From: Hormiphora californensis
Taxonomy: Eukaryota > Animalia > Ctenophora
DNA: 64,000 nucleotides
Assembly: GCA_020137815.1 (NCBI GenBank)
Contig: CM035359.1
Coordinates: 5,828,001 to 5,892,000, forward strand
Direction: 5' to 3'
Numbering within the stretch: position 1 is the first letter of the stretch; every line of letters begins with the position of its first letter. The notes beneath the pieces are model-generated. The model worked only from the letters and a program-made list of their open reading frames with translations, made no database searches and had not been told where the DNA came from. The position numbers and the translations under genes were made by a program. Of the stretch, positions 2,650 to 31,200 are shown piece after piece.

Positions 2650-15299
<12,650 letters not shown>

Positions 15300-16878: not shown

Positions 16879-19800
16879 TCATTCTTGGCGGGCGAGGAAA
16901 GATTTTGATGTGGCATCGTCATCCCCGGACAACTTTCTTGTCTTGATGTGGTATTCGGATAGAATCTGAAAATAGGGTCGATCAAGAATCGTGATTGGCA
17001 TACGAATTTTAGAGGGGTGGCTTTTAGAAGGGGGTATAATGGATCACTAACATCGCTGAGTTGCTCCCCATTTCCACTGAAGTAGGCAATAACTGCAGAA
17101 TTAAACATCTCCAACTGCTGCTTCATGACTGTGTTCTGAAAGGAAGTCGTGTTTTAGATCTGTGGCGCTTGTCAGCGCAGTTTTTAAACAAGAGTGTGGC
17201 GCGCCGTTTGATTTCGTGTCGCGTTGGCGCGCAGCGCGACGGTGGGCAGACCGGGTAAAGATTGAATGAAATGGCGGTCGCGCGTTCCATAAAATTCCCA
17301 CGGAATCCTGGACCGGCGAAACTGAGCGTTCCGTGGGCGTCTTGAGCCACTGGGTATTGATTTAGTGTTATTCACCTTGTTTTCATTTAACAGGTTCATC
17401 TTGGTGTGAGTATCTTGCATTAATCGCTCCCACTTTCTTTTCCTGTCATCGTACGTGATCTGTATTGAGAAAAAAAAAAGTTAGTTTAAAAACCACCTCC
17501 GTCTTTCTTAGTCCGACTTCGGAACTAAACGATTGCATAACTCATACTGGACTATACTCCAGAGACTAGTGATCTACGTTACCTGAATTTCAAGCAGTTT
17601 GTTCTTATTGGCATCGGTTTGTGGAGCATTCTGCAGATTAGTAACTTCGTTCCGATATGCGTCATACTCAATTCGAGCATTTTCATAGTTTCTGCAGGGT
17701 TAGAATAAGCGTTAACTCTTTGTTAAGCCGAATTTATTTTCACCATGACACTCTCATTATCTCCCCAAACCCCATTTCTACCATCTCACGACTTACTTAA
17801 CAGTCAGGATGGTATCTTGCATGGTGACATTAACCAGGGTATTGAGAGAATCCACAAACGATTTGATTGCCCCTGTGAGTGGAGAAGTCTAGTGAGGAAT
17901 TCTCTTGATATATGACCCTCCTTTACATTTGCACACGGAAAGAGGGTCGAGCAAGAAAAGATTTATCAGGGTACATAAAATACAGTTGCAGAGATATAGG
18001 AATGTAGAAACATCTCAAACAGTAACTTACCTAACAGGCCCTTTCCGTTTCGTTCTAATATCAGATGAGTCGTTGAGTTAGCTTGAAGTTGCTCACCTAG
18101 CTCAGGAGCATGCGCCACCATTGTCTGAAATAATTCAATTTTAACCAAATTGGAGCAGATTATATTTGTAACGATTTATTACACAAGTGACAAGATCTCT
18201 GTAAATATTATGTGTATGGTCTCCCCTCTCTTACATTGAACTGCGTCCTCAGAAGTTGATGGGATGTAAGGAGTGCCTCAAACCGTGTGTGTAATGCCCT
18301 GGATTCTCTTAGCATGGCAGCAAACTGCAGCTTCTGTATCTTTAGATCGGATATTCTTTCCTATGGGGAGAATTTAGTTAGAATTCATTATCTGAAATAA
18401 ACAAAGTCAACTGAACATGGAACTACTATACCATTATATAATCCCTGTTTCACCACGCTCCATGTTTCAAACTTCTCAACACTACTTTAAACAAATTAAT
18501 TTGAGAAAGCCATGTCCAAGTAAAAAAACCCCGGACGCTAGACGAGACCCCGGTCACCACATGTTTAAGAAGTGACTCTACTCCCCCCGATTTAACCCCT
18601 GAACGAGTTCTTTTCCACTCTACTCTTCCGCCTCCTCACGGATATCCCCGATCAATGTATATTTGAGCCCCCGGGCATTGGGGACTTAGAAGATATACAA
18701 TCTGATAAGTTCTGGTAAAAAAAGCGGTTTTTATAAGGCTGCTAAACAACACCACTCAAAGCCGGCCCACCCCCGCGCCCCGAAAAAGGGGGTTCAGTAT
18801 GATGAGGGGTTTTACAGGGGGCTATACACTACCGAAATTTCGTTTCCCCGACCCCGGACGAGCTGAAAACAACAGTCCCCCAGCATTTTGGGGGAAAATC
18901 CCCGAACCCCCACCTCTAAAATGCTCTCCAGTACTGGGAAGTGGGGGGGGAGAGTTCGAGCTGGGCAATAGAACCCTAACCCAAATTTAGTTTTCCCATG
19001 GCTAGGTCAAGGAGTTTCGGAACGGGTTTAATGGGTGTTCTTGGTATATTATAGGGAACAGAATGCGAAACTGGGGTCCACTCCGATGGGGAGCGCATGA
19101 ACGACCCGGATCTCCTATCATCAAGTTTGAAGGACAGTCTGGGAACTGGTGTTCAGGAGCGAAGACCCACATATTTAAAAGCCTGTTTCGATTTGGGGGG
19201 AAGGGACTGTGTGTATTCACCCCGGAATGTAGGATCTTTAAAAATTTGCAGTGAAAAGGAGGCACCAGGACCACACCAGGGGCTGGAGGCAGTGCTGTCA
19301 TTTAGAAGGGTGGACAAATTGGAAACGGTGCTACATCCCCCCCGCCCAATCCAAAAAAAATGTCTGTGGGAGTTCCCCCTCCCCGCTATACCCCCTCCCC
19401 AGTCCATCAAAAAAATCACAATCCCCAGTACCGAAAAAACCCCACTCCTCCCCCCTCCCCCCCCTTCACCAATGGGGTCTCCTATGCCGGGAGCAGTCCC
19501 CACCTTCTCCGAGCTAACGGCGCTTGTCTGGTACTGTCCGAAATTGCTGTGATGCCCCTCCTGCCAACGGAACCAGGGATACTGGATCCCCCCGCGGGGG
19601 ACTAGGGGGGGATGAGTCCCCCCTCTGACGATACCCCCCCGTCAGGTGTCAGCCCTAAAGGAGGGTTCCCTTACACCAGCAGACTGAAATCTCCTCCTAC
19701 TCCCCCCCTCTCAACTAGGAACAGCCACCACTTCATCGAACTATGAGCATGTTGCCTTGGGAGATTCAATGTTAAAGGGACTGTGTCTGGGTGGGGTTAA

Positions 19801-22800
19801 GGTCTTTGCCTATGGAGGCATCACGATTCGCGGGCTGCACGACAAGATAGTGGGCTTCATCCCTGACAGCTCTACAAAAACTGTGACCCTATTGGTCGGG
19901 ACAAACGATTTAGATAGTAGCCTTTCGATATGGTCAATAGTAGATAGATATATCGATCTCATGGAGGTAGTACGTAGGGCCTATCCAAATGCCCTGATCA
20001 ATTGTATAAATGTTCTACCTAGGGCGGACATTAGAGATATTGGGATGGATATAGTGAGGCTTAATAGGCTATTGGAGGATTTCGTTGAGATGGAGGTAGT
20101 CGGGGCTTCATGGATTAGGCTCTTTAGGGAGTACCTGGATCACTGTGGGTGCTGTCCCAATCTCAACCTTCTAGCGAGAGGGAGGCTGCACCACAGTGTG
20201 AAGGGGAAACAAATACTTATTAACTGTATCCTGAGATGCATTGGTAGAGCAATCGAATATAGAAGGCGATATAGAGCAGATCGGGTGGCCGGCTCCTGAG
20301 CTACAAAAATTTTGGTTTGAAATGATAGATCTTGAAACTTATCGCAGTCGTATTGGAACCCACTACCAACGTAAATCTAACCATGAAAACAACAAAACAA
20401 ACCGACTAAGACACTACACATCACAATATTCCACAACATACCGCGAACCCCCGTATAATTCTCAATTTCTTCGCTTTTTCTTAGCCGGTTCCGGTGTCTT
20501 TCTATATGGATTCATAATATTTCTATGTTTTCTCGGCCTTTCCAGGCAGTCATTCTCCAACAATCTAGACCATTGCTTGCCACGATCTGTTCAGAGTGGC
20601 AGTTTTATGAAACCTCAAATCTATCCCCTTTATTTAGCAATACAAATGGCATACCTTTTATGCATAACCTCCAGTAGCAACATATCTTCTAAAAGAAATG
20701 ATATAAAAATCAAAACACTGTTTTTCCTGAAAACATTAGTCAGATCTCTAATATACTTTTTTTCGTAGCTAGTGGCACTGCTACTCTAGTGATACAACCC
20801 TGATTACCAATCCGGGCCAAAACAAAGTTGAAACTAGACCCTTAAAAAGTATTTTTGTAACATCAGGGTTTAATAAAGAACCTAGACCTCAAAAAATCCA
20901 ACCTTCCAGGCAAATAAAAAGTGATTTAAGGGCCCATACCTGTAACTTATCCCCCGATATATTTATTCTAAATGAAAATGGTTTTCTAAGTTATATAGAG
21001 ATAATGAAGTGGTATGGATCAGACTACACAGTTTATAGAAAAGATAAAACTACGGGCGAAAAAAAAATACAAAAAAAAAGGGGGGGGGGGGTAAGATCAG
21101 AAAAAAAACAATGCGGGTTTAAAGTTTTCTATATAAGGAAATTTGGAGATCTTCCCATTTAAAAGGCTTGTTAAAGCAAAAAAAAAGGGGAAAACTTTTT
21201 TATCTAACATATTATAGAATGATTACAGTAGTTGAGTTTGCAATCAGTAGAGGAATATTATTAGAGCTCATAAAAAGATATAGCAACATAGCATTTATAG
21301 GTGACTTGAATTTTAAGTTCAGTAAGGACGGGGTGTACCCGTACTTCGAACTCCAGCCACTCCAGGTTCCTGGTATTTGATAATTTAGGTCTAAAGTTTA
21401 AAATTAAAAAAATCTACCCATCGTCAGGTAAATTCTCGACCTCATCATGACTAATCAAACTGATATGTTTTTCAAGCACTATCCCAACCCAAAACCCTTA
21501 CTTCTTCTGATCTTTTCCCTTAACAGCTGATATCCCCCGATCAAGAAACCCAAGTCTGTAGAAAATGAGAAAAATTTTTTTACAAAAAGGCGGATGGAAA
21601 AGCATAAATAATGAATTAGGTAAAGTTTATGGGGGCCTTTTTTAGAAAACCGTACAATTAAAAAAAAAGGAATCTTAAATCAAAAAGGACATAATCTTAG
21701 AAAACAATTTTCCCATGGTTTCGTTAAAGTTGGGGAAAACCCCCATGGGAGACAGTGAGTGAAAAATCTAAAAAAAAATCGATGAGAAAAAAAGTCAGCT
21801 AAAGCTCGGGGCAGATCCTGCCCCTTTAAAAATTTTTCCCAAAAAATTGAAAGGATATAGGGAAATGGTTAAAAATAAAAAGGAAAGTTATTTCACTGCG
21901 AAGGGCCCGGAAACTCTGTTCTAAAAAGTTGTACAAACCATTTGGTCTTATCACTAGTACTAGAAATTCCGAGTTCTACAAACGAAAAAAATCCATCCAC
22001 AATTAGAAGAAAATGTAACATGTTTTAATTTCTTTTTTAGTCAACAGTTCTGGGTAGCAGTGATTAAAAAAACTCACGTTAATTAAGAGAAATAATTTTG
22101 GGGCTGAATGACACTTATTTTAGGAAAATGATGTTTTTAAAATCTCAAAAATTTAGACCATCAAAACCACTGGTCCGATAATATAGAGGGGATTGTCAAA
22201 GAAATGCGGGGTTTTTTCTTAGTAAACCCTTTTCCCTTTTTTTTAATAGCTGTTTTCCCCGCTGGCGTTTTCTGCCGAATGGGAAAAATGCCAATGTTGC
22301 CCTATACACAAAAAGTGTGCCAAGAACGATGTTAGGGAAATTTGGCCCATATCCCAAAAAGTTTAGTATGAAAGTCTTTGAAAATTTAGTCGGGCAAAAC
22401 TTACTCTCAATGCAAAGAAAAATAAAAAAAACATAAAAGGCTTTTTCCTCATAAATCTGTAAAACACAGCTTATTGAAATTTTCGCAAATTGCCTAAATT
22501 CTAAACAATCACCCAAAAAGATATGTTTATTTGACTTTTTAAAGGGTTTTGATAGTTCTCCAAAGACTTAAATTAGAAAAAAATTAAGAACCAAAATTTA
22601 TATAGCGGGAAAACTGCTAAACTTTATAAAAAAATTTTCTCCCAAAATCGAAGACAGCGTGTAAAGGGAGATGGCTCATTCCGATGGACTCTGTAACACC
22701 CGGTTGTAAACCCCAGGGTTATTCTGGCCCCTAATTTTTTCCATTTAAAACGTATTGGGTTTTAGTTAGGGGATGGTACCAAATAAAATATATGCCGAGA

Positions 22801-24847
22801 CTCAAAATTGGCGGGAAAAAGAGTCAAAACCAGTCTGCAGTTAGATATAGATAATTAGAAACGGGAGCACTGAAATAAAATGAAGTTTCATCCTTAAATG
22901 TAAAGTAAAACGTAACAGTAAAGTGGTTAAGATATTTTGAATTATTGGGGGGAGTAAAAACTAGATGTACATGTCGAAACGTTTTTGGGGTGTTATGCGG
23001 GGAAAAATAAGCTACACTGATCCCTCGAATTTGTTCAAAAAACTTTACAAAAAACTAGGTCTGTCAAACGGCACTGTAATATGGTTGTCAACACAAGCTA
23101 AAAAAACTCTTTAAAAGTAATTAGGACTTTTAAACTGTTTTCCCAATTGGGACCCTTTAAGTGATAATGGTCTCAGTAAGTTGAAAAAAAATACAAAAAA
23201 GGGGGTGTGAAATTTCTTTTAAGAAAAATTGTAGCTACACTGAATGAAAAATTTGAGAAAATTTTGTGAACTGAAACTATTCCGATGTCCTCAAATTCCC
23301 TTTCACCGATATACTCTTCTGCACAAAAAGTTATTTCACATTCCCCGCAACTACCTGCAACTACAATGTAGGGCAGACAAAACCCATTTTACTAGAACAA
23401 CGAGATTCCAGAGTGAGAGAGAGACCTTCATATTGTTTGTACCGAGAGGGCAAGACTTGAGTCATTTGAGCAGTCATTTTTCTACAGAACACATTTGGCC
23501 TGGAATTTACTCCCACTGTCTCTAAGAGAAATATGCAACCCTGCACTTTTTTCCATTAAACTCAAGAACCACATGCTAGAACACGGAGTAACATAAAATA
23601 TCTTCTACTACAGCTGTATCTCTATTACTAGCCCTCTAATCCTAGATTTAAGGAAAGTACAGCTGTGAAGCATTTTGCTGCACTCTCTTTCTCTCTCTCT
23701 CCCTCACTCTCGCTCTCTCTCTCGCTCTCTCCCTCATTCTCCCCTTCTCTCAAAACCTCTCTAATATATCTCTCCCTCCTGCACTCTTTCTACTTCCTAA
23801 AACACTCTCTCCAGCATGACTATATGACGTGACTCACCGACAGGACAAAATAATCTAAAATACACAAAAATAAAATTTAATAAATCAATACCTCTAATTT
23901 ATTAAACTAATTTATTATCTACATTACCCTATAAATTGATTTAGTGTGACTCTGCGGCGTAAGCGTCTAATTAGACCTGCCTCTAATCTGCTCTATATAC
24001 AGGGACTTATATATATTTATATTTTTATGTGTGCTACTTTTCCTGTATATGTTGCAAATTAGTTTAAAATCAAATCAAAATCAAATCAAATGAGGGTCAG
24101 AACACAAGATGTGACAAAAGATGTGGCATGGTTGAATTGTTCACACTTCAGTGGATATGGCTAATGGCTACTCACGTCAGTATCCTTATCAACTGTTTTT
24201 GTTGTGTTCCCTAGTTTCTCTCCGACCAGTTGTTTTGTGTACTTGTAGTTTGTTATCGTCCACTTCTTGATTTGTTCCAGTTTAGGGGGCTCCAATGTTA
24301 AACACTGTACGGGGAACAATCTATCAGATTAGGGAACACAAATACCAATTGGAAAGGGAGGTATGGGTTGATCTACCGAACCCTCACAGCCTGTGAGTCA
24401 CATGAAATAAAATGACGGCGTGAGCCACACAAGGTATTGGGTGAGCAAATATATTCCCACATATATGAGTAAACCTTTGGGAAACCTTTCAATAATGTGA
24501 ATCAAAAGTCAGTAAAAACTAAATAAAGCACCTTTTTATCGGAAATAAATGGATTATCAGTAAAGCTGTCAGTAAACTGTCCCCCTTCTACTAATCCACT
24601 TTCTATCTGTCTGTCGTTTGTCTGTCTGTCAGTGTTATAGTCTGTCTGTCTGTCATTATAGTCTGTCATCATTTCATATTGTTCTAACTGATCAGATGAT
24701 GGGGTGGTGGTACTGTCGGGAGTTTTCATATTGTGGAAGAGTTATTATATTGTACAATTCAACACACACAGTAGTAGGAGACAAAAGGAAACAGCGGTGT
24801 GTTGAGAATGGTGGTCGTGTGCGGAGAGAGAAAGAGAGAGAGAGTGA

Positions 24848-28220: not shown

Positions 28221-31200
28221 AGAGATTGTGTAAAAGAAGGAAACACCATACTGCACAAAGTAAACAACTGGTGAAGAAATCACAGTGGTGGAAATGAAGA
28301 AAAAGAGAGAGAGATGGAGAGAGGTTGAGAGAGAAAGTGAGCTAGAGAGAAAGAGAGATATAAAGATAGAGATATAGATAGAGAGATGCAGGCTGACTCA
28401 CATTTAGAGTTAGGGTTATTAGGATCCTTGGGTGCATCAGCCATCAGGATAAATCCAAATGCGATGGCTCCATTGACTACTGCAACAATGTAGCTCTCAG
28501 CCACAAACATCATGTTACTACTACCGTGGATAAAACTTGTTCTTCCTGAGCAGGGTTAACTTAAATTAAACTCAGATTTGATTTTCCCTTCCATCATTCC
28601 TATCTCTCTGTTTTTATATAACACTCAAACAACTGACCAATAACGTTCCTTCCTTACCTGAGGCCCGGTCGACGTGAGCGAAGGGGGCACCACGGATGTG
28701 CAGCCACATTTGTCCACTTGTCATGGCAAACATAATAAACTGGGGAGGGGAAGATGTGAGGATAATTTCAGAATGATTTCTCCAAGATTCACAGGATACA
28801 TACAGCTATAGGTAACAGATCTGTGACATCATCTCACTATCTAAAAGCACTTACCATGGCAGTGATGGCCCAGTATTTCCACTTGTAAAGGAAGTCCAAA
28901 CTGTTTCCTTTTATCAACAGAGTTCCTGATACCGCGAATAGGAATACTCCCAGTAAGATGGCAGTTGGTGTAGTTAGGGGGCCTGTAATAATGATAACAT
29001 TATTTATTTCAGTACCACTATTGACTATAGTCTATACCGGTATCTAAAAGGACAGTAATTAATCTTGTTGAAGCTCTCCTGACTCATTCTATTTTGGTCG
29101 TTAAATCCCCACAACGAAATAGTCCCCAAAGATAAGTTGCAGTTTTCCGATGACACTAACCTAATAACCTCGATGACAACCTCGCTCCTTTCCTTGACCC
29201 ATTTCGCCACTGCCTCAGCCGAAATTCCTCGCCTCTCAATATCAAACTTGTCCTCTGCCTTTCTCTTTCCACTGGCAGGGAAATGAAGAACTACCGGGGC
29301 TGATGTCAGCTTCAACTGTAGAGGGGTTTAGATATTGTTAAACCATTGGGAAAGGTACTAGCGTACTAAAGTACTATACTGGATAGGCCCAGTAAAACTT
29401 TAAAAGTTGGGCCCCGGGTATTCCAAACTCATTTCCTTGAGTTTTGGTACCAGATCAGATATAAACACAAACCCGCTGAAAGATGGACGCCCCACCATCA
29501 TAATCAACTACAGAGAAGAAAACACGATTATCAAAGGACCGGGAGTAACGGTGCGATTTGGCCAGCGTGATAAACTCACTGTGAGCTTCCCTGGGTTAGA
29601 GATTCAATTAATCATTGTTAATGCATGGGTGAGGTTGAAATTAAGCAAACGCCAAATAGCGTGTTAAACATTTACCATGCGTTTTCTCGCTCGATGAGAG
29701 AGTCTAACCAATAAATTAACAGAGAGCTAGTAATTATTAATTAAATGGAAGACGTGTACTTACTTGCATATTTTGCATTGACGGTTAGGGGCCAGCGCGG
29801 TAAACATGACAACCATACTGTAGTTTCTGGGCATCGTTCTGAAAGCAAAGCAACATTATTTCATGTGAAACAGCGTTTTTGGAGTCTGTTGATGGGCAAA
29901 ATTTTTCTTTTTTCTATCCCAACCAACATAGCTTGAAGCTTTCTCTCCCTTGATTCTTTTATACATAGAAAACTAGTAAGCTCTCACTCGCATTTGTATT
30001 GAAAGTTTTGTTGTGGCGAGCTGGATGGTGGGCGAGGGAGAGCAAGAAAGAAGAGATATATAGGGGGACAGAGAGAGAAGGGGAAATCAAGGTAAAGATA
30101 ACTACTATCTCTTCTCTCAAGTTTTATAAGAGAGAGAGAGAGAGAGAGCTGTTCCAATTCCATCTATTCTGGGCAGAGCGTTGTGTTGAACTCTTCTGTT
30201 CTAAGATCATACTACAACTAACAACTAGGTCCAGTTATCTAGATTATCTAGATTATCTGGATTATCTAGATGATCGTATGGGAGTGATTTTCCTAGTTTT
30301 GCTTCTGTCAGTTCCGCTAGGAGTTTACGGAAATTGCTCAACCACCAAACTTGCATCTATCAGTGAAGCAACATCAAGATCTATCTTCAAAAATGGTAAG
30401 TTTTAGCTCGTATTAGCCCGTATTAGCTCGTTTAGCTACATTTAAGACCGAGTACTACTACTACTGAACTACGAGTGCCTGAGCTTGCCAATGGCAATCC
30501 CATAGGGGACTATCGTAAAACGATATCGCCGTTACTAGGGTCTAGGAGAGTAGCCCCCCCAACCCCCACTGTTGACTGTTTATAGGAACTACCATTATAT
30601 GGCAGGGTGGAATACTTTAATTGGTCTATTAAGTTTTATCAAACTCTTTCAGAAAACAAACACATCGCTCAAAACGTTCTTGACAATGATATTAACACGA
30701 TGTTTCATTCACTTATCGATGAGAATCCTGAGTGGCTCAAGCTAAAGCTCACAGTGTCATCATGGGTTGACAGAGTGGTCATTATAAACAGGTAAATTAC
30801 AAGCCACTGAAGTCCGTAATTCATAATGCGTGTTGTATTATTTTTTGCCTAGCAGGATTTAATTTCGCAATTCGTGCACCCCGCCAGCAAAACACATGTA
30901 AAGGAGGGTTAGAACATAACACTTATTTTTGAATTCTTCAACTCATATTTAGCTTAAATGGGGCTGTAATTGTAATCGTGGCATACTAAATTAAAACTTC
31001 AATAGGTGTAAAAATGTCAATGCAAAAAGCTCAACCCGGCTTGCTGGAACTCAAATATTACTACTGGGAGCCACAACCAACACCACTTGCGGGACTATCT
31101 CAACAATAAACTCTAACATAGAATCTGTAGAGGACCAAACATACACTATTTCCTGCCCAAATACCAGCGAACCTACCATTGCTGTCTTCCTATATGATGA

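Follow-up and report, generated by a model that had tools for sequence, protein, structure and literature searches.

How does a retrotransposon come to begin with the spliced leader (SL) of its host, and is such a beginning an accident of one copy or a regular part of the element's cycle? The question is raised by a long interspersed nuclear element (LINE) located at positions 18464–24091 of a 64,000-nucleotide stretch of the genome of the ctenophore Hormiphora californensis (assembly GCA_020137815.1, contig CM035359.1, positions 5,828,001 to 5,892,000 of the forward strand; this whole stretch is called the window below). A LINE has to restore its 5' end and its promoter by way of an RNA step, for which internal promoters and self-cleaving ribozymes acting on co-transcripts are the known solutions. 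The first 42 nt of the window element (18464–18505) are the SL exon of its host, and the data below indicate that the element was copied from trans-spliced RNA. We assign a probability of roughly two thirds to the reading in which trans-spliced LINE RNA is the template and the SL head is repeatedly renewed.

The spliced-leader head of the element

The 42-mer at 18464–18505 occurs only once in the window. Compared by eye with the 44-nt leader reported for H. californensis (PMC8527503), it agrees with the last 42 nt at all but one base. It also corresponds to 42 of the 43 nt of the exon of L087, an SL RNA gene found among the SL loci of metagenome contigs (L001–L121), with 41 of 42 nt identical and a lone substitution at 18475 (C in place of T). 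A match of this length by chance (about 1e-15) was ruled out, and the 42-mer is the host SL, as a preliminary description of this DNA had proposed. L087 and L088 are tandem ctenophore SL RNA genes spaced 778 nt apart in one metagenome contig, with the exon followed by GTAAG. Since the short-read runs that contain the window also have the upstream and intron sequences of the L087-type gene, as loose ends of their SL contigs, we regard it as the SL gene of this animal group. The first 120 nt of L087/L088 give a fold z score of -2.5; an Rfam scan of the window yielded no match.

The 42-mer is not part of an SL RNA gene: no GT donor or SL intron follows 18505, where AAAGCC is present in place of the GTAAG of L087 and L088, and the match with L087 stops at 18464 without any SL-gene upstream sequence before the element. 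This identity, which the preliminary description had also discarded, was ruled out. The head has an AT content of 74%, and its sole AG is formed by its last two bases. What stands at 18464–18505 is thus the SL exon alone, nearly complete (about 1 nt short of the SL start), ending exactly at the splice junction and preceded by an unrelated flank, as in an SL-tagged retrocopy. Both of its borders were found in short-read contigs. A 1534-nt contig of run X1 covers 17600–18494 with 0 differences and extends 31 nt into the SL, while the SL-to-LINE junction (18504–18511) is present in six gap-free contigs from four short-read runs and two samples.

The preliminary description placed the start of ORF1 at the ATG at 18512, 6 nt after the SL. 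This start was rejected because the ATG is followed at 18521–18523 by a TAA stop, in which the short reads concur; positions 18512–18523 form a three-codon upstream ORF (uORF, Met-Ser-Lys-stop). ORF1 probably begins at the next ATG (18561), which gives a leader of about 55–60 nt.

Spliced leaders at the 5' ends of other copies and families

The 5' ends of other members of the family were obtained by aligning short-read contigs over 18488–18670, which gave 17 contigs from four runs. Twelve of these extend upstream of 18504, and the SL's 3' end was present on each of them (14–18 bases compared). The junction is the same as in the window, with the SL followed by AAAGCC without gaps, in six of them. 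Four others carry a 6-nt insertion between the SL and AAAGCC, the 3' splice-site-like hexamer TTTCAG (two without any other difference, from runs X4 and X5, and two with one more, from X4 and X6). In two contigs, the match with the SL is restricted to its final 14 bases, contains two differences, and adjoins a different flank; these represent an independent insertion. The TTTCAG form had been expected beforehand from the metagenome locus L081 and from an X4 contig beginning at 18504, and was then found; it is the dominant form in X5 (sample S2), where it accounts for 1329 of 1594. These two junction forms are as expected if trans-splicing had occurred at two neighboring AGs located 6 nt apart. 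In terms of depth, which is a rough guide and does not give copy number, the SL-headed forms of X4 (313+230) amount to 543–610 of the 662 found downstream (about 80–90%), and the SL-headed contigs of X5 amount, again roughly, to all of it. The SL head is therefore a family-wide trait and not the one-off event which the preliminary description had seen as a threat to its proposal; four distant LINE families also carry it. As a separate observation, a low-depth contig of run X5 shows at 18469–18486 a partial leader, eight other bases and the leader again, which is possibly a stacked relic located elsewhere in the genome.

When contigs from marine metagenomes were searched for exact matches to the final 23 bases of the SL, at least 121 loci were detected. 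Most of the loci listed are SL-capped host mRNAs: among 73 frames from 71 listed loci, a protein-family scan (which covered 2 of the 41 short loci L081–L121) matched 63 with host families, 10 with nothing, and none with a reverse transcriptase (RT). At least ten listed loci have four or more bases foreign to the SL gene before the SL. Three of these ten (L019, L066, and L089) have a few such bases, resemble host mRNAs, and were left out of the genomic count. All five loci of the data set Ga0233438 (L028, L039, L042, L064, and L085) are among the ten, and we infer that they are DNA contigs; L042 and L064, although they show no more than 6 and 5 bases upstream, extend from the SL through a TTA tail into the flank. 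L039, L042, and L064 encode an ORF1 and an endonuclease with RT above the Pfam cut-offs, and L028 encodes an ORF1 homologous to theirs with a partial endonuclease, whereas L085, with only 300 nt of downstream sequence, is unclassified. Among the matches listed there are thus four further LINE families headed by an exact SL. Their ORF1s share 43–59% identity with each other, and since the ORF2s of the metagenome SL-headed LINEs show only 23–28% identity with those of the relatives of the window family, they belong to a second, distant LINE lineage. The labels L2-like for L039, L042, and L064 and CR1-like for the window element are provisional and were given on the basis of motifs.

The SL heads of these families match the exon of the SL gene over 40–43 nt, 23 of which were forced by the search, and end at varying points 0–3 nt short of the SL start. 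The adjacent untranslated regions (UTRs) are 84% identical between L028 and L042 and 68–74% in the case of L039. In L028, L042, and L064, the SL is joined at the same position within 1 nt. The UTRs of the L2-like families are 145–190 nt long and contain strong acceptors directly before the ORF1 ATG. Other features of these UTRs may be mentioned on their own account: L028, L039, and L042 share a conserved ATCGAT about 10–20 nt after the SL, which is a candidate promoter element, and the acceptor right before their ORF1 ATG is a candidate site for the production of a separate ORF1 mRNA. ORF2 of L042 contains, between the endonuclease and the RT (2727–3045), eight in-frame tandem 39-nt repeats encoding a glycine-rich unit of 13 residues.

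Two shorter loci look like further SL-headed cases. L081 consists of the SL, TTTCAG, and the same uORF as in the window element; it looks homologous to the window family, judging from this common uORF and from 16 matching bases out of 18 past the acceptor. Comparison of its ORF with longer proteins gave no match, which is weak evidence. L071 (1–1258), an SL-headed element of 1.1 kb, consists of the SL, TTTTAG, a single ORF1-like frame, and an end made up of short repeats. It is related (E 3e-7) to the SL-capped mRNA L015, which has an ORF1-like frame as well, and both fall in unnamed ctenophore clusters of the atlas; the two are possibly members of a non-autonomous retroelement family. A motif consisting of GTAAC and a run of C, located 17–19 nt after the SL in L015, L071, and L081, is also present after 18516 in the window family; it overlaps the stop of a tiny uORF in otherwise unrelated elements and is a candidate internal promoter or translation signal. 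The SL pattern gave 0 matches in viral contigs and genome contigs.

The host mRNAs provide a point of comparison. A YAG lies within 6 nt past the SL in 31 of the 112 host-mRNA-like loci among the matches listed, against 10–17 in controls, and the loci listed have a median SL-to-ATG distance of 11 nt. In this animal group, tandem trans-splice acceptors look frequent, so that splicing at the first AG, where a second one is close by, is normal.

Acquisition and proposed renewal of the leader

The copying of trans-spliced RNA is shown by the presence of the exon alone, by the exact splice junction and by the ragged loss of 0–3 bases at the cap end; on this point, the proposal of the preliminary description that the RNA was trans-spliced and reverse-transcribed nearly to the cap is upheld. 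In view of the SL at the 5' ends of the family and of four distant families, SL-capped RNA is likely to be the normal template of transposition, and the SL-headed copies are likely to be the propagating form. In the cycle we propose, LINE RNA would receive the host SL by trans-splicing, and reverse transcription would then run almost to the cap. As the outron would be removed before reverse transcription, a promoter located upstream of the splice site would not be copied, and new master copies would have to be SL-headed. In a transcript starting upstream of or at such a copy, the old SL would serve as an AU-rich outron and the RNA would be trans-spliced anew. Splicing would occur mostly at the final AG of the SL, which would restore the same 5' end and preserve TTTCAG where it is present; the following AG, located six bases further, would be used on occasion and would give the form of the window copy. 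The transcript might originate in host read-through, or an internal promoter within the short UTR might give rise to it. Repeated trans-splicing is indirectly supported by the existence of two forms one acceptor apart and by the agreement of the SL heads with the present SL gene beside UTRs that have diverged. The re-capping at the same base each time, as first envisaged, may have to be amended, since the two junction forms indicate that a 6-nt shift is possible.

The preliminary description went further and regarded the 5' end as promoter-less. In the fullest form of this reading, several ctenophore LINE lineages would have lost their own promoter, the host SL at the start of every integrated copy would act as an outron and acceptor on any read-through transcript, the spliceosome would renew and cap the 5' end at each cycle, and occasional slips to the next AG would shorten the UTR. 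We hold this version to be tentative and unproven: the related SL-headed families keep UTRs of 145–190 nt with acceptors inside them, which suggests that the UTR perhaps holds something needed, possibly a promoter. For the window copy, read-through from the host gene does not hold, because this copy is antisense to that gene; it does not have to be a source copy itself.

Several observations weigh against the renewal of the SL head. The metagenome scan selected for the SL, and outron-headed copies were invisible to it. In X6, no more than about half of the depth found downstream (2065) is due to the SL-headed contigs (249+792), and contigs with a non-SL 5' end could have been missed, as their match with the error-ridden window would be limited to about 20 nt. 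Slippage between the near-tandem units TTTGAG and TTTCAG could yield the same two junction forms, and GAG is a weak acceptor. The strong acceptors before the ORF1 ATG of the L2-like families would be expected targets of re-splicing, and the antisense position of the window copy counts on the same side. No SL-bearing RNA read of the element was seen, the one run guessed to be RNA (X10) having no cover beyond the SL and being uninformative either way. Lastly, the concern that the join might be an assembly chimera is met by the presence of both junctions in short-read contigs, but those spanning the SL and the LINE have fewer than 31 bases per side and cannot anchor the join to this locus.

The SL might alternatively have been captured once per lineage and inherited as a promoter or initiator, transcription starting from its first base without any re-splicing. 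The dominance of the TTTCAG form in S2 and its presence in L081 imply that this form propagates with its acceptor intact, and the long UTRs of the L2-like families with their inner acceptors point in the same direction. A promoter role of the SL exon is known from Ascaris, about which our literature search gave nothing. A similar role has been proposed for retroposed dinoflagellate SLs (PMC6050394), and a 77-nt internal promoter, Pr77, is carried by trypanosomatid LINEs (PMC8190864). However, simple inheritance requires 40–43 nt to have remained unchanged with respect to the current SL gene while the adjacent UTRs diverged by 16–32% (calculated by hand, 0.84^17 comes to about 0.05 and 0.74^18 to about 0.004 if the bases are unconstrained), and, taken alone, gives no account of the second junction form; we judge it unlikely. 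It is distinctly improbable that a few fixed masters, with an upstream promoter, an outron and two close acceptors, produce all the SL-headed copies as dead ends comparable to processed pseudogenes with SL relics. Such masters would account for the exact junctions, the perfect SLs and both forms without re-splicing, their outron-headed copies could escape both the metagenome scan and the short-read alignment, and an explanation of this kind is given in passing for flatworm transposable elements (PMC5832876, PMC12582326). The outron promoter would remain uncopied, however, unless some RNA escaped splicing, and yet the families are old and diverse, as the identity between their ORF1s indicates; the common position of the SL join in L028, L042, and L064 and the predominance of SL-headed contigs in the depth of X4 and X5 also speak against it.

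That the LINE was inserted behind an SL already present in the genome, by targeting of the type known in NeSL, CRE, and SLACS or by chance, or that the join is due to a template switch or an assembly chimera, is very improbable. The number of SL copies reported in the H. californensis genome and the bad assembly of the interior of the window LINE are in its favor. But the tail is not followed by an SL intron (GTAAG...), the element is not preceded by upstream sequence of the SL gene, the flanks differ between copies, the junctions are seen in short reads, and removal of the SL together with the LINE leaves a host intron of 187 nt. Targeting of SL genes was ruled out, since the endonuclease of the relatives is of the apurinic type and not restriction-like and the insertion site is a host intron. 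The latter two points separate the window element from NeSL (PMC4640811), CRE, and SLACS, with which it has in common the presence of a LINE beside SL exon sequence: these elements have a restriction-like endonuclease and insert into SL genes, the NeSL type targeting the SL exon.

Fusions of SL exons with mobile elements have been noted elsewhere. In Schistosoma mansoni, six genomic SL exons are fused to transposable elements and were regarded as trans-spliced retro-transcribed elements or chimeras (PMC5832876), and the same was suggested for 597 loci with partial leaders at LTR and LINE elements, which a survey of 24 cestodes and trematodes discarded (PMC12582326). These flatworm cases resemble the ctenophore LINEs in that a genomic SL exon fused to a transposable element is ascribed to the integration of trans-spliced RNA. 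They figure, however, as side remarks in texts which leave chimerism open and give no family 5' ends, junction variants or cycle, whereas in ctenophores entire families of two LINE lineages begin with a nearly complete SL. Dinoflagellate retrogenes bear SL relics whose promoter role is debated (PMC6050394); there too, the tag marks retroposed trans-spliced RNA and repeated rounds occurred. In that case, host genes were moved by an RT of unknown origin and the rounds left tandem relics, whereas in ctenophores an autonomous element is tagged and the leader would be replaced and not stacked, the only AG of the 42-mer being the one with which it ends. Among the Iso-Seq reads of transposable elements in Hydra, about 30% carry an SL (PMC12220107), which we count in favor of the renewal of the head. 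Our literature search, to which subscription papers and Repbase notes were largely inaccessible, gave no description of LINE families whose defining 5' end is an SL, nor of such elements in ctenophores. The ctenophore elements extend the known SL-tagged retroposition, and their two junction forms and SL variants provide an unusual handle on the cycle.

If the SL head is indeed renewed, host trans-splicing would be another way of rebuilding the 5' end of a LINE, employed in this instance by two distant lineages of LINEs in an animal. This would offer an explanation for part of the 718 leader copies of the H. californensis genome, the nature of which was left open in the accessible text, and of the 491 of Mnemiopsis (PMC8527503); if the promoter-less version were true, a good share of these hundreds of ctenophore "leader" copies would be accounted for. 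Genomic SL counts should not be equated with counts of SL genes. Since an SL-headed copy would be a trans-splice acceptor, selection against sense-strand insertions in introns is predicted. The SL variants are a built-in tag, with which the cycle can be tested directly on existing long-read DNA and RNA.

Body of the element, insertion site and neighboring genes

The window element, a LINE resembling those of the CR1 group, belongs to a ctenophore of pleurobrachiid type. The ORF1 region (18561–20299), the 5' two thirds of which are unreadable because of indels, ends with an SGNH/GDSL esterase (19712–20296; PF13472, E 2.1e-5, under the curated cut-off; SGNH clusters of the atlas, 0.94). This esterase gave only weak SGNH matches in the PDB and no match with longer proteins, which is weak evidence. 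ORF2 (20322–23596), which encodes an apurinic-type endonuclease and an RT, contains many frameshifts in the assembly; the window is colinear over 20241–23593, and ORF2 from 20322 to 23593, with related endonuclease and RT proteins (P0001, P0002, and P0003; PF03372, PF14529, PF00078), and the frameshift-aware score of the window against P0001/P0002 was 1684–1799, as against 66–103 with block-shuffled DNA. Because of the frameshifts, isolated ORF2 fragments of the window gave no endonuclease or RT match; no ORF2 relatives were found in viral contigs or genome contigs. A 3' UTR (23597–24066) with a CT-rich repeat at 23683–23751 is followed by a microsatellite tail of 4.8 copies of AAATC (24067–24091). 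This order of esterase, ORF2, and tail is that given in the preliminary description. An esterase-type ORF1, an ORF2 with an apurinic endonuclease and RT, and a simple-repeat 3' tail without poly(A) are also features of the CR1 group, in which many members of the CR1 and L2 superfamilies have an esterase in ORF1 (PMC13343379); unlike these LINEs, the window element has the host SL as its 5' end, at about 55–60 nt before the probable ORF1 start.

The element is full-length in extent, as described previously, although both ORFs are broken by many indels. The indels of the LINE interior are most likely assembly errors and not decay, since no short-read contig supports them and the contigs of two samples, which contradict the window, agree with each other.

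The insertion lies in antisense in an intron (18361–24175, minus strand) of an arfaptin-like host gene. The flanks of the element are the two halves of this intron, with no SL gene parts on either side, and 187 nt of it remain after joint removal of the SL and the LINE. A possible 3-nt target site duplication or microhomology (ATG at 18462–18464, repeated at 24090–24092) is too short to be separated from chance. The exons of the gene are located near 24176–24292, 18233–18360, 18032–18124, 17586–17690, and 17382–17459 on the minus strand; only the last two have Arfaptin matches, which are below the cut-off, and the upstream ones were inferred from GT-AG sites and the reading frame. At 17915–17952, this gene contains a short repeat present in multiple copies, the ends of which are hairpin-like; depth is increased there and loose ends are numerous. 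The neighboring host genes include RhoGEF-like exons at 10494–11802 on the plus strand and OST3/OST6-like exons at 29028–29327 on the minus strand.

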